A stretch of DNA of 64,000 bases from Escherichia coli (GTDB lineage Bacteria; Pseudomonadota; Gammaproteobacteria; Enterobacterales; Enterobacteriaceae), in assembly GCF_048403405.1 (NCBI RefSeq), contig NZ_CP183129.1; one strand, written 5' to 3'. The notes under the pieces were generated by a model, which had not been told where the DNA came from, searched no databases, and saw nothing but the letters and a program-made list of their open reading frames with translations. Below, in pieces: positions 5,277-55,784 of the stretch (the stretch's first letter is position 1; every line of letters starts with the position of its first letter). The position numbers and the translations under genes were made by a program.

Positions 5277-5367
5277 GAGATAAATCTCCCGTGGCTAACG
5301 ACATCCCCCGTCGTTGTGTATAGAATATTCCCCCGAAGTTTAAGGTTGGCACCTCCAGGTTGCCACG

Positions 5368-5461
5368 GCACACGAAACAGCGTTGGTCCCCATATACCGG
5401 TAAACTGAAACTGCAGCGAAGCAGTTAGCAGAACCATGTATATCAGGTCTGTTTCGTGTGC
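5368..5461 (+). promoter_or_regulatory. rnc leader long-range stem (candidate RNase III autoregulatory processing hairpin)
   Basis: Perfect 13-bp inverted repeat gcacacgaaacag (5368-5380) / ctgtttcgtgtgc (5449-5461) in the 5' UTR ending about 35 nt upstream of the rnc ATG. Confidence 0.45.
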
Positions 5462-5464
5462 TGA

Positions 5465-7077
<1,613 letters not shown>

Positions 7078-8959: not shown

Positions 8960-9038
8960 AAAAGTAAAACCCCCGAACTGGTAAGGAACAGGGGGTTTAC
9001 TTTACAACTTTAATTTTGTGCAGCACGCACCCTCAACA
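8960..9038 (-). ncRNA. ohsC: OhsC-like antitoxin sRNA (approximate boundaries)
   Basis: Minus strand: -10-like CATAAT (9050..9045), then hairpin 8998..8966 with a U-tract; contains the reverse complement of 9018-9039, which matches the shoB 5' UTR. Confidence 0.5.
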
Positions 9039-18216: not shown

Positions 18217-18400
18217 AGTGGCTCATTCACCGACTTATGTCAGCCCCTTCGGGACGTGCTACATAAAATACGAATGACGCACAACAAGGTGCCTGCCGTC
18301 CAACTTCTGATATCAGCGTAGCTATATCAACCATCGGGCGAAACGTCGAGTTAGGCACCGCCTTATTCCATAACAAAGCCGGGTAATTCCCGGCTTTGTT
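18217..18400 (+). ncRNA. glmY: GlmY small RNA (184 nt)
   Basis: Begins AGTGGCTCATTCACCGACTTATGTCAGCCCC; ends with hairpin aaagccggg-taatt-cccggcttt (18375-18397) plus a U-tract; lies between purL and glrK. Confidence 0.85.
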
Positions 18401-35617: not shown

Positions 35618-35649
35618 TGCCGGATAAGGCGTTCACGCCGCATCCGGCA
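35618..35649. repeat. REP element between convergent yphB and yphA
   Basis: tgccggataaggcgttcacgccgcatccggca, a canonical REP palindrome. Confidence 0.6.
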
Positions 35650-46847: not shown

Positions 46848-46935
<88 letters not shown>

Positions 46936-46977
46936 CAGGTACAAACGCCACGATAAAAAAATGGCACTGAAGGTTAA

Positions 46978-47027
46978 ATACCCGACTAAATCAGTCAAGT
47001 AAATAGTTGACCAATTTACTCGGGAAT
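46978..47027 (+). promoter_or_regulatory. candidate IscR type-1 binding sites in the iscR promoter
   Basis: ATACCCGACTAAATCAGTCAAGTAAAT fits ATASYYGACTRwwwYAGTCRRSTAT; a second weaker site AATAGTTGACCAATTTACTCGGGAAT is adjacent. Confidence 0.4.
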
Positions 47028-47110
47028 GTCAGACTTGACCCTGCTATGCAATACCCCCACTTTTACAATAAAAAACCCCGGGCAGGGGCGAGTTTGAGGT
47101 GAAGTAAGAC

Positions 47111-47599
47111 ATGAGACTGACATCTAAAGGGCGCTATGCCGTGACCGCAATGCTTGACGTTGCGCTCAACTCTGAAGCGGGCCCGGTACCGTTGGCTGAT
47201 ATTTCCGAACGTCAGGGAATTTCCCTTTCTTATCTGGAACAACTGTTTTCCCGTCTGCGTAAAAATGGTCTGGTTTCCAGCGTACGTGGACCAGGCGGTG
47301 GTTATCTGTTAGGCAAAGATGCCAGCAGCATCGCCGTTGGCGAAGTGATTAGCGCCGTTGACGAATCTGTAGATGCCACCCGTTGTCAGGGTAAAGGCGG
47401 CTGCCAGGGCGGCGATAAATGCCTGACCCACGCGCTGTGGCGTGATTTGAGCGACCGTCTCACCGGTTTTCTCAACAACATTACTTTAGGCGAACTGGTT
47501 AATAACCAGGAAGTGCTGGATGTGTCTGGTCGTCAGCATACTCACGACGCGCCACGCACCCGCACACAAGACGCGATCGACGTTAAGTTACGCGCTTAA
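47111..47599 (+). CDS. iscR: Fe-S cluster regulator IscR, Rrf2 family (162 aa)
   Basis: N-terminal HTH; cluster-ligand cysteines ([13 protein letters not shown]). Confidence 0.95.
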
Positions 47600-47710
47600 T
47601 AAAAAGTATTCAGAATCAGGCCGGAGTGTTTAACACTCCGTAAACACGGTCGTACATCCAGCCGGTAGCCTGGTTCCTTGCATTGAGTGATGTACGGAGT
47701 TTATAGAGCA

Positions 47711-48925
47711 ATGAAATTACCGATTTATCTCGACTACTCCGCAACCACGCCGGTGGACCCGCGTGTTGCCGAGAAAATGATGCAGTTTATGACGATGGAC
47801 GGAACCTTTGGTAACCCGGCCTCCCGTTCTCACCGTTTCGGCTGGCAGGCTGAAGAAGCGGTAGATATCGCCCGTAATCAGATTGCCGAACTGGTCGGCG
47901 CTGACCCGCGTGAAATCGTCTTTACCTCTGGTGCAACCGAATCTGACAACCTGGCGATCAAAGGTGCAGCCAACTTTTATCAGAAAAAAGGCAAGCACAT
48001 CATCACCAGTAAAACCGAACACAAAGCGGTACTGGATACCTGCCGTCAGCTGGAGCGCGAAGGTTTCGAAGTCACCTACCTGGCACCGCAGCGTAATGGC
48101 ATTATCGACCTGAAAGAACTGGAAGCAGCGATGCGTGACGACACCATCCTCGTTTCCATCATGCACGTAAATAACGAAATCGGCGTGGTGCAGGATATCG
48201 CGGCTATCGGCGAAATGTGCCGTGCTCGCGGCATTATCTATCACGTTGATGCAACCCAGAGCGTGGGCAAACTGCCTATCGACCTGAGCCAGTTGAAAGT
48301 TGACCTGATGTCATTCTCCGGTCACAAAATCTATGGCCCGAAAGGGATCGGTGCGCTGTATGTGCGTCGTAAACCGCGCGTACGCATCGAAGCGCAAATG
48401 CACGGCGGCGGTCACGAGCGCGGTATGCGTTCCGGCACTCTGCCTGTTCACCAGATCGTTGGTATGGGCGAAGCCTATCGCATCGCAAAAGAAGAGATGG
48501 CGACCGAGATGGAACGTCTGCGCGGCCTGCGTAACCGTCTGTGGAACGGCATCAAAGATATCGAAGAAGTTTACCTGAACGGTGACCTGGAACACGGCGC
48601 GCCGAACATTCTCAACGTCAGCTTCAACTACGTTGAAGGTGAGTCGCTGATTATGGCGCTGAAAGACCTCGCGGTTTCTTCAGGTTCCGCCTGTACGTCA
48701 GCAAGCCTCGAACCGTCCTACGTGCTGCGCGCGCTGGGGCTGAACGACGAGCTGGCACATAGCTCTATCCGTTTCTCTTTAGGTCGTTTTACTACTGAAG
48801 AAGAGATCGACTACACCATCGAGTTAGTTCGTAAATCCATCGGTCGTCTGCGTGACCTTTCTCCGCTGTGGGAAATGTACAAGCAGGGCGTGGATCTGAA
48901 CAGCATCGAATGGGCACATCATTAA
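47711..48925 (+). CDS. iscS: cysteine desulfurase IscS (404 aa)
   Basis: PLP motif [10 protein letters not shown] and active-site loop SSGSACTS; start at [19 protein letters not shown]. Confidence 0.95.
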
Positions 48926-52706: not shown

Positions 52707-52950
52707 TTTCCCCGTCATGCTTCACGCCGCAGATGCGTTGGCTGCGCTCGTTCACCCCAGTCACATAGTTATCTATGCTCCTGGGGCTTCACTCACTTGC
52801 CGCGTGATTCGGCCTTTTGGCCTCACCCCTCCGGGGCCAGCGCAAGCGCTGTTCAAAACGCAATGCGTTTTGTCCTGCAACGCGAATCATTTAGCGGAAA
52901 AATCCTGGGGCTGCCAACTGGCGGCCCTTTTACAAAGAAGGATAACTAAA

Positions 52951-54352: not shown

Positions 54353-55129
54353 ATGTCCGAAACAAAAAACGAACTTGAAGATCTGCTGGAAAAAGCAGCA
54401 ACCGAACCGGCGCACCGCCCGGCCTTTTTCCGTACGCTACTGGAATCCACCGTCTGGGTGCCGGGTACGGCGGCGCAGGGCGAGGCTGTGGTTGAAGATA
54501 GCGCGCTTGATTTACAGCACTGGGAAAAAGAAGACGGCACCAGCGTCATTCCTTTTTTTACCTCGTTAGAAGCACTTCAACAGGCGGTTGAAGACGAACA
54601 GGCATTTGTCGTAATGCCCGTTCGCACATTGTTTGAGATGACCCTTGGCGAAACGCTCTTCCTTAATGCCAAACTGCCGACCGGTAAAGAATTTATGCCG
54701 CGTGAAATCAGTTTGTTGATTGGTGAAGAAGGAAATCCGCTGAGCAGCCAGGAAGTACTGGAGGGCGGTGAATCGCTGATATTATCGGAAGTCGCAGAGC
54801 CACCAGCACAAATGATTGATTCACTCACCACCTTATTTAAAACTATTAAGCCGGTGAAGCGTGCTTTTATTTGTTCAATTAAAGAGAACGAAGAGACACA
54901 GCCTAATTTACTTATTGGCATTGAAGCCGATGGTGATATCGAAGAAATTATTCAGGCGGCGGGAAGTGTAGCGACCGATACATTACCTGGCGATGAACCC
55001 ATCGATATTTGTCAGGTGAAAAAAGGGGAAAAAGGAATTAGCCACTTTATTACCGAACATATTGCGCCATTCTATGAACGTCGCTGGGGTGGCTTTTTGC
55101 GTGACTTTAAACAGAACCGGATAATCTAA
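54353..55129 (+). CDS. sseB: SseB, enhancer of serine sensitivity (258 aa)
   Basis: ORF 54344..55129; start at MSETKNELEDLLEKA. Confidence 0.85.
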   Translation: MSETKNELEDLLEKAATEPAHRPAFFRTLLESTVWVPGTAAQGEAVVEDSALDLQHWEKEDGTSVIPFFTSLEALQQAVEDEQAFVVMPVRTLFEMTLGETLFLNAKLPTGKEFMPREISLLIGEEGNPLSSQEVLEGGESLILSEVAEPPAQMIDSLTTLFKTIKPVKRAFICSIKENEETQPNLLIGIEADGDIEEIIQAAGSVATDTLPGDEPIDICQVKKGEKGISHFITEHIAPFYERRWGGFLRDFKQNRII

Positions 55130-55134
55130 AATAT

Positions 55135-55152
55135 GCCGCCCCAAAGGGCGGC
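55135..55152. terminator. hairpin shared by sseB (+) and the convergent ryfA-like RNA (-)
   Basis: gccgccc-caaa-gggcggc; on the minus strand the stem is followed by AUAUUUUAGAUU. Confidence 0.55.
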
Positions 55153-55160
55153 ATTCGGGC

Positions 55161-55298
55161 TTACTTGCTGCTCTGAAGTTTGTTAACCACCAGTAAATTG
55201 TTACCGGAGAGACTCCGGTTATTATTTACCTCGGTTAACAGCGCACCAGAAACAATAAGTACGATACAAAAGCACCGTATCTTCATTGTGCGGTCCAT
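55161..55298 (-). CDS. candidate small hydrophobic (TimP/type I toxin-like) protein, 45 aa (41 aa from second ATG at 55286)
   Basis: Manual translation: MDRTMKIRCFCIVLIVSGALLTEVNNNRSLSGNNLLVVNKLQSSK; in-frame TGA five codons upstream of the first ATG; no obvious SD; too short for the ORF track. Confidence 0.4.
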   Translation of the reverse strand: MDRTMKIRCFCIVLIVSGALLTEVNNNRSLSGNNLLVVNKLQSSK

Positions 55299-55505
55299 GC
55301 GAAGACCGCATCACGACAGCACCACTGGCGATATTGCCGCGATAGCAAGCGCTGAGACGCGCTTGCCCTAACGGTCGCGGAACATCCTTTCCTTGAGCCA
55401 GCGCCCGCTTGCGAGACGGCGGAAAGGGCCGGTGTCGATAATACGCTAAATAAACAATGATTACTCTCTTTCGCTTGACAAAAAGAGAGTTACTGGCGAG
55501 TATTG

Positions 55506-55606
55506 TGTCCGCTGAGACGCGCTTGCATTACTACGGTAATACAATCTGCTGGAAAGGCCGCGAACCAAACCAGCAACAAATAACCGCCTGATTTTGGCGG
55601 TTTTTT
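55506..55606 (+). ncRNA. candidate antitoxin-type sRNA, module 1 (approximate)
   Basis: TTGACA (55475-55480)-18 bp-AGTATT, then about 100 nt ending in aaccgcc-tgatttt-ggcggtt + TTTTTT (55582-55606); nt 55510-55526 are perfectly complementary to the minus-strand RNA at 55350-55366. Confidence 0.45.
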
Positions 55607-55784
55607 GTTGCTTAAAGAAAGTGAATTTACATGTTTAAGTAATATCTTTTACCGGTTAGTATTTTTAATATTGAGCGGGATTTGTTTATATTTGTCTGAA
55701 TTCGGACTGATAAGCCAAATGAATTCAAAATCTATCCTTTTTTATCTACTTGACATCGTTGATGCATAAAGCGAGTATTGAGTA

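Follow-up and report, generated by a model that had tools for sequence, protein, structure and literature searches.

The iscR–iscS Spacer of Escherichia coli: The iscR Stability Element and an Adjoining Predicted RyhB Pairing Region

Introduction

How can one small RNA direct the loss of the iscSUA part of the iscRSUA mRNA and leave iscR intact, and what in the spacer between iscR and iscS of Escherichia coli would allow this? RyhB is a Fur-repressed small RNA encoded elsewhere on the chromosome, and its repression at translation-initiation regions, such as those of sodB and sdhC, depends on Hfq and RNase E. On the iscRSUA mRNA it binds the iscS ribosome-binding site (PMC3089445) and blocks iscS translation, and iscSUA decays while iscR survives (PMC7038943, PMC3089445). 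In work by independent groups, overexpression of RyhB brings iscRSUA down by 90% and iscS-gfp down threefold (PMC11572966), and a ryhB mutant has IscS raised twofold when iron is chelated (PMC6497325). The Masse laboratory attributes the RyhB-dependent build-up of the iscR transcript to a strong secondary structure that the iscR–iscS intergenic region forms (PMC12533949). The papers cited here for this system (PMC12533949, PMC7038943, PMC3089445, PMC11572966 and PMC6497325) all cite Desnoyers et al., EMBO J 2009; the supplements of PMC7815308 that were searched for published 3′-end data have no iscR or iscS entry. Two other small RNAs act on the operon, OxyS and FnrS, and these bind the 5′ UTR of iscR (PMC11572966); they were rejected as further ligands of the spacer, given that target.

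A sequence-only reading of this DNA had noticed a hairpin and a second inverted repeat in the spacer, and had put forward that a structured spacer spares iscR while RyhB directs iscSUA decay. That mechanism agrees with the Rfam family RF01517 and with the literature. The analysis reported here covers the identity, fold, conservation and RyhB complementarity of the spacer, which very probably consists of two adjoining, previously described cis-acting RNA modules of the iscRSUA mRNA.

Materials and Methods

The window is the whole 64-kb stretch of DNA that was analysed. The RyhB sequence was taken from strain MG1655. Two sets of homologues were assembled, the first consisting of 80 iscR loci from reference genomes and the second of 120 metagenome loci, for which the anchor was the 3′ arm of the 9-bp stem described below plus GATGTACGGAG; 56 of the latter were distinct, real elements. 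Alignment was with a covariance model based on the Rfam structure and took in 75 elements, of which 72 were distinct. The gathering threshold of RF01517 is a covariance-model score of 40 bits.

Identity and Setting of the Spacer Element

The window is E. coli chromosome, and positions 47000–47800 have 100%-identical counterparts, annotated as iscR and iscS, in many complete E. coli genomes. The order of open reading frames around the spacer is suhB (on the minus strand), trmJ, iscR, iscS, iscU, iscA, hscB and hscA. With the iscR stop codon ending at 47599 and the iscS ATG at 47711–13, the spacer is 111 nt long (47600–47710), just as the sequence-only reading had placed it. The features of the locus are:

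47111–47599, + strand: iscR coding sequence, 162 aa, stop codon included (ORF list; annotation in the 100%-identical E. coli genomes)
47600–47709, + strand: match to Rfam RF01517 (iscRS, 'iscR stability element'), 131.7 bits, E = 6e-34, model positions 1–110 of 110
47711–48925, + strand: iscS coding sequence, 404 aa, counted from the annotated ATG (47711–13)

The spacer element is the already described, Rfam-curated iscR stability element. Its score lies well above the gathering threshold, it occupies the sense strand between iscR and iscS, as the family does in E. coli, the match extends over the full length of the model, and the same helices are supported by covariation. The RF01517 consensus has five helices, namely an outer stem, a 9-bp stem, hairpin 1, hairpin 2 and a small hairpin 3, and these are kept by compensatory change except for the outer stem, which is weak, and hairpin 3, which does not covary. 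A departure from the family description is that the outer 5-bp consensus stem is poorly supported in the 72-sequence alignment. The source description of the element is reportedly that of Desnoyers, Morissette, Prevost and Masse (EMBO J 2009).

Among E. coli genomes the spacer varies more than the sequence on either side of it: at ≥99% identity it was found in 205 of 5,424 genomes, compared with 4,315 for the 801-nt region. A few bases separate the window strain from K-12 MG1655 (the top of hairpin 1, 47607 and 47672), and these changes preserve the structure. Upstream, the gap between trmJ and iscR is 269 nt in the window and 451 nt in MG1655. A true REP (repetitive extragenic palindromic) element lies in this gap, at 46880–46950, and a 26-nt identical copy of it occurs at 35621–35646.

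Fold of the Spacer

The sequence-only reading had taken the spacer to be structured, and folding predicts a stable structure. The whole 111-nt spacer folds at −32.6 kcal/mol (z = −2.5), with 4 of 200 shuffled sequences folding equally well, and the core (47611–47678) folds at −29 kcal/mol (z = −4.8), a value that none of 200 shuffles reached. The core is a three-way junction in which the 9-bp stem closes hairpins 1 and 2, and its helices have pair probabilities of 0.88–0.997 in contexts of 114, 221 and 790 nt. The structural features, from 5′ to 3′, are:

47600–47612, + strand: A-rich single-stranded 5′ flank, unpaired in the minimum-energy fold and A-rich in most of the 72 homologues
47607–47611 / 47697–47701, + strand: outer stem of the RF01517 consensus, weak
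47613–47621, + strand: 5′ arm of the 9-bp closing stem, GAAUCAGGC, paired with 47668–76 at a probability of 0.90–0.997 in the three contexts
47622–47640, + strand: hairpin 1 (CGGAGUG-UUUAA-CACUCCG), present in the sequence, pair probability 0.99
47644–47666, + strand: hairpin 2, in the Rfam consensus, with a covarying stem and a 12-nt loop, UCGUACAUCCAG (47650–47661)
47668–47676, + strand: 3′ arm of the 9-bp closing stem, GCCUGGUUC, found in the Rfam consensus, the fold, the covariation analysis and RNAalifold
47679–47694, + strand: hairpin 3 (UGCAUU / GAUGUA), in the minimum-energy fold and recovered by RNAalifold, weak and local

The perfect hairpin that had been picked out from the letters at 47622–47640 (CGGAGTGTT / AACACTCCG) is present and real, and is hairpin 1 of RF01517; a repeat search extended its arms to 9 nt (47622–30 / 47632–40). 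The earlier structural picture was right in so far as hairpin 1 belongs to the protective fold. It overlooked the 9-bp closing stem, however, and the second repeat on which it also relied lies outside the fold. Considered alone, either inverted repeat is only marginally unusual, and when the spacer was dinucleotide-shuffled 1000 times, 28 of the products had a local perfect stem of ≥7 bp. Hairpin 1 is accepted as a real structure because the comparative evidence, in which five of its six pairs covary, decides the matter.

Hairpin 3 is a different case. It contributes about −3 kcal/mol to the core and is lost in longer contexts, where its probability is 0.001–0.055. Adjoining it in the E. coli minimum-energy fold, UCC (47675–77) pairs with GGA (47696–98) of the iscS Shine-Dalgarno sequence. 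In the longer contexts the end of iscR, ACGCGCUUAAU (47590–47600), pairs with AUUGAGUGAUGU (47682–47694), a pairing that encloses the core and displaces hairpin 3.

Covariation of the Structure

Across the 72 distinct sequences, 91.1% of cells in the whole structure are paired, and 14 pairs are changed on both sides (102 cells). None of 500 shuffled alignments reached the observed values, and shifted registers gave 34–52% paired cells. The individual helices rank as follows in the same 72 sequences:

9-bp stem: 99.8% of cells paired; 3 pairs changed on both sides
Hairpin 3: 95.8% of cells paired; 0 pairs changed on both sides
Hairpin 1: 91.9% of cells paired; 5 of 6 pairs changed on both sides
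Hairpin 2: 86.2% of cells paired; 5 of 5 pairs changed on both sides
Outer stem: 75.6% of cells paired; 1 of 5 pairs changed on both sides, in a single sequence

The extent of change can be seen in one pair of hairpin 1, which is CG in 29 sequences, UA in 27, GU in 5, UG in 4, GC in 2 and AU in 1. Differences between E. coli strains are likewise concentrated at the top of hairpin 1 and are compensatory, preserving pairing. The same ranking of helices was obtained when 19 sequences were aligned with MAFFT, which is blind to structure, and RNAalifold independently recovered the 9-bp stem, hairpin 1 and hairpin 3. When 19 taxa were folded as single sequences, the closing stem and hairpin 1 were retained in about 18. 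The outer stem of the Rfam consensus, judged from the aligned sequences, appears to have little comparative support, and one of its pairs is possible in just 13 of the 72. Hardly any variation is seen in the hairpin 2 loop, UCGUACAUCCAG, even though the stem that carries it covaries, and the Rfam structure leaves this conservation unexplained.

RyhB Pairing at the iscS Start

The second part of the spacer runs into the iscS translation start, with the Shine-Dalgarno sequence GGAG at 47696–99. Here the octamer GAGCAAUG (47706–13), which covers the iscS AUG, is perfectly complementary to RyhB nt 40–47; the alignment of the RyhB core to the iscS start that the sequence-only reading had put forward as a check does, then, find complementarity. 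The best local duplex adds RyhB nt 53–57, paired with GGAGU (47697–701, the Shine-Dalgarno sequence included), and nt 61–69, paired with UGAGUGAUG (47684–92), and defines the following feature:

47684–47713, + strand: predicted RyhB pairing region, duplex with RyhB nt 39–70, −23.9 kcal/mol

Complementarity of this degree does not stand out statistically in the window. Perfect 8-mer complements to the RyhB core number 55, with 54.7 expected by chance, and duplex energies at least as good as that of the iscS start were found in 334 of 127,942 30-nt windows on both strands, GC-rich coding regions scoring better. A scan of duplex energies does not single out the iscS start and was rejected as evidence for a RyhB site. 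Duplex prediction with the whole RNA was also rejected: by taking no account of intramolecular structure, it produced an artefactual pairing between the RyhB terminator hairpin and the spacer. Energies corrected for accessibility are only about −5 kcal/mol for RyhB and the spacer, with two competing registers, and cofolding prefers the other register, in which 47680–93 pairs with RyhB nt 39–54. The RyhB site is distinguished only by its position at the start codon and by its conservation, not by the statistics of complementarity.

This conservation is considerable. The contact between GAGCAAUG and RyhB nt 40–47 is kept in approximately 37 of 41 distinct Enterobacterales translation-start variants, the E. 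coli RyhB core being assumed throughout. In species with short spacers, the second copy of a RyhB repeat (nt 48–60, ACAUUGCUUCCAG) pairs with UUGGAAGUGAUGU (GGAAGUGAUGU), leaving the Shine-Dalgarno sequence as a loop with a helix on each side. The predicted RyhB pairing is apparently two-part, flanking the Shine-Dalgarno sequence in these models. We infer the exact register of the pairing.

As with the RyhB targets sodB and sdhC, pairing would be at a translation-initiation region, the single-stranded RyhB core (nt 39–70) being complementary to the Shine-Dalgarno/AUG region of iscS. The iscS gene differs from them in being an internal cistron, with polar decay and with the upstream cistron spared by the adjacent structure.

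Three further observations can be added. Within iscS, 48109–48138 (+ strand) forms the second-best RyhB-core duplex on the plus strand of the window (−29.3 kcal/mol), and includes ACTGGAAGCA (48118–27), a 10-nt perfect complement to RyhB nt 52–61; this may mark another RyhB contact within iscS or may be coincidental. In E. coli a GTG at 47687 and an ATG at 47690 are in frame with iscS, and elsewhere this ATG is, in most genera, the start of a mini-ORF of 4–7 codons that ends in TAA, or in a TGA overlapping the iscS AUG. An alternative start at 47690, or a conserved peptide, was judged unlikely, the frame relation to iscS varying between genera. Finally, the stop codon and 5′ flank (47597–47612) read UAAUAAAAAGAAU in K-12, with the pattern UAAUAAAAAG(U/A)AU. 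This resembles (ARN)4, the typical motif of the distal face of Hfq, and a contact with Hfq is possible; the 9-bp stem would place the (ARN)4-like flank beside the predicted RyhB site.

Distribution

Among the reference-genome loci, the core with its 9-bp stem was found in all 16 from Enterobacteriaceae sensu stricto and in no other family. Twelve of these 16 pass the RF01517 threshold. The module GAUGUACGGAG and the start-codon octamer GAGCAAUG are conserved across many Enterobacterales, and both are absent from the loci of Vibrionaceae, Aeromonadaceae and Alteromonadales, where the spacers are 3–57 nt long. On the simplest reading of this distribution, the translation-start region that binds RyhB is the older part, and a structured stabiliser was added to it in the Enterobacteriaceae lineage.

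Additional structures occur at some loci. In several Enterobacteriaceae genera the iscR stop codon is separated from the core by a further, unrelated GC-rich hairpin or insert, and the spacers there are 135–242 nt long. In Erwinia and Pantoea stewartii, strong but non-homologous hairpins (z = −3.8 to −5.7) replace the core.

Alternative Readings of the Spacer

The second inverted repeat is a perfect 8-nt pair, CGTACATC (47651–58) and GATGTACG (47689–96), that ends 14–15 nt before the iscS ATG. The sequence-only reading had listed it (as RNA, CGUACAUC / GAUGUACG) alongside hairpin 1; the repeat does exist, but neither fold nor covariation supports a helix. It is absent from the minimum-energy fold and from the Rfam and RNAalifold consensus structures, and in the Rfam consensus its GUACAUC falls within the hairpin 2 loop and its GAUGUAC within hairpin 3. 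Since the repeat crosses the 9-bp stem (47613–21 / 47668–76), its probability in nested folding is zero, and it might still form as a pseudoknot or alternative conformer, with CGUACAUC (47651–58) in the hairpin 2 loop paired with GAUGUACG (47689–96) upstream of the iscS Shine-Dalgarno sequence. Its eight pairs are all perfect Watson-Crick pairs, stacking of the helix would give about −13.7 kcal/mol compared with about −3 kcal/mol from the competing hairpin 3, and the pair is possible in 94% of cells in the 72 sequences. The loop arm CGUACAUC is identical in 51 of the 72 while its stem covaries, and the commonest change in this 5′ arm, C to U, retains a G-U pair in nine of nine cases. Against this, the helix crosses the best-supported helix of the element, forcing it costs 5.4 kcal/mol, and not one of its pairs is changed on both sides in the 72 sequences. 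An inverted repeat of ≥8 nt turned up somewhere in 36 of 1000 dinucleotide shuffles of the spacer. All 72 sequences have the 3′ arm GAUGUACG unchanged, though partly by ascertainment, and a shuffle control is therefore uninformative. Conservation of this arm is just as strong in Serratia, Yersinia, Dickeya, Hafnia and Tatumella, all of which lack the 5′ arm, and Cedecea, Siccibacter, Shimwellia and others have kept the core and lost the 5′ arm. The motif GUGAUGUACGGAG is likewise kept in Serratia, Yersinia, Hafnia, Dickeya, Pectobacterium, Tatumella, Mixta and others, where the spacers are short and lack both the 5′ arm and the core, so the conservation of the 3′ arm probably has another cause. 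A tertiary contact between the hairpin 2 loop and GAUGUACG is mentioned in none of the sources consulted. The pseudoknot is accordingly doubtful, and it is similarly improbable that such pairing explains the conservation of the loop UCGUACAUCCAG and couples the stabiliser core to the ribosome- and RyhB-binding region of iscS. Were it real, RyhB pairing or ribosome loading and the stabiliser fold would influence each other, and the contact would tune iscS translation or the access of RyhB.

The remaining alternatives assign the spacer, or part of it, to other classes of element. The 3′ part might act mainly without RyhB and mask the iscS ribosome-binding site, serving as a translational structure or RNA thermometer in the manner of RF02783 in Yersinia. 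This family ('IscS-1 ICR thermometer') matches the homologous region in Yersinia, Serratia, Photorhabdus, Dickeya, Hafnia, Mixta and Brenneria, it has the same intercistronic position as the E. coli element, the module GUGAUGUACGGAG..GAGCAAUG is common to E. coli and the matching species, and the pairing of UCC with the Shine-Dalgarno sequence in the E. coli fold is of the kind expected. However, RF02783 gave no match in E. coli (47500–47800) even at E ≤ 1. It lacks the 64-nt junction core and takes in about 96 nt of iscR together with iscS codons specific to Yersinia; the codons used by the Yersinia hairpin belong to an N-terminal extension absent from E. coli IscS. Hairpin 3 is weak and vanishes in longer contexts, and a thermometer leaves the core junction unexplained, which together make this an unlikely account of the E. 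coli sequence. REP elements block exonucleases, and the spacer, being palindromic and intercistronic, could be a copy of that dispersed family acting as a generic 3′ stabiliser. The label 'REP RNA secondary structure' is in fact used in the secondary literature (PMC7038943). Yet a sensitive blastn search (E ≤ 1) of 5,424 E. coli genomes found exactly one copy of the spacer per genome, whereas the true REP upstream of iscR (46880–46950), used as a positive control with the same settings, was found in at least 40 places per genome. The spacer and this neighbouring REP share no alignment longer than 5 nt, there is no second copy of the spacer in the 64-kb window, and the MG1655 record has no annotated REP features near iscR. 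Copy number and the lack of sequence similarity refute membership of the REP family, a reading that has next to nothing left in its favour, and the customary label is a misnomer. What the spacer shares with REP elements, such as the one in malE-malF, and with other intercistronic stem-loops that protect upstream mRNA is the proposed job, a stable 3′ structure that halts 3′-to-5′ exonucleases and leaves cistrons of unequal stability; unlike REP it is single-copy and locus-specific, and its fold has three helices meeting at a junction where REP has a simple palindrome. Just as improbable is that the hairpins are an intrinsic terminator or attenuator, or that a hidden internal iscS promoter is present, so that iscR would be uncoupled from iscSUA transcriptionally. 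A GC-rich hairpin does follow the stop codon, and discoordinate expression of operons is often set by internal terminators (PMC7038943), but a U-tract follows none of the hairpins (hairpin 1 is followed by UAAACACGG), scanning of both strands of the spacer found no terminator-like or promoter-like sites, and the species observed is the full-length iscRSUA mRNA (PMC11572966).

Proposed Mechanism and Significance

The preferred reading remains that of two adjoining modules. Module 1 (47613–47676) is the compact three-way junction, with its 9-bp stem closing two hairpins, and Module 2 (approximately 47684–47713) the iscS translation-initiation region, with its complementarity to the single-stranded core of RyhB. 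Under iron limitation, RyhB together with Hfq would pair over the Shine-Dalgarno sequence and AUG of iscS, blocking the ribosome and exposing the downstream iscSUA RNA to RNase E. The 3′-to-5′ exonucleases would then halt at Module 1, leaving a stable, translatable iscR mRNA, the apo-IscR product of which would switch Fe-S cluster assembly to the Suf system. We infer that the exonuclease block is the core junction, and not hairpin 3 or the outer stem. The present analysis establishes the identity of the element, its fold and covariation, and the RyhB complementarity with its conservation, while RyhB-dependent decay of iscSUA and the dependence of the stable iscR fragment on the spacer are known from the literature (PMC12533949, PMC7038943).

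The element is a textbook case of one small RNA splitting the fates of cistrons within an operon. Loss of iscSUA with iscR spared helps E. coli to switch from Isc to Suf under iron limitation, a switch that has been tied to aminoglycoside tolerance (PMC6497325, PMC11572966). The feature was already known, and the established picture is unchanged. This analysis makes small additions to it: the fold that would protect iscR is a three-way junction whose helices covary and which is restricted to the Enterobacteriaceae proper, and it adjoins a much older, apparently two-part predicted RyhB site that is common to E. coli and the 'thermometer' region of Yersinia.

Other Rfam Matches in the Window

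An Rfam scan found no RyhB gene in the 64-kb window. The other matches were:

1720–2551, − strand: AsrC
5335–5549, + strand: rncO
8961–9037, − strand: ohsC
18217–18364, + strand: GlmY
52808–52880, − strand: AaHKsRNA22, a weak match (45.3 vs 39.8 bits)
55128–55432, − strand: ryfA
55564–55741, − strand: IS128
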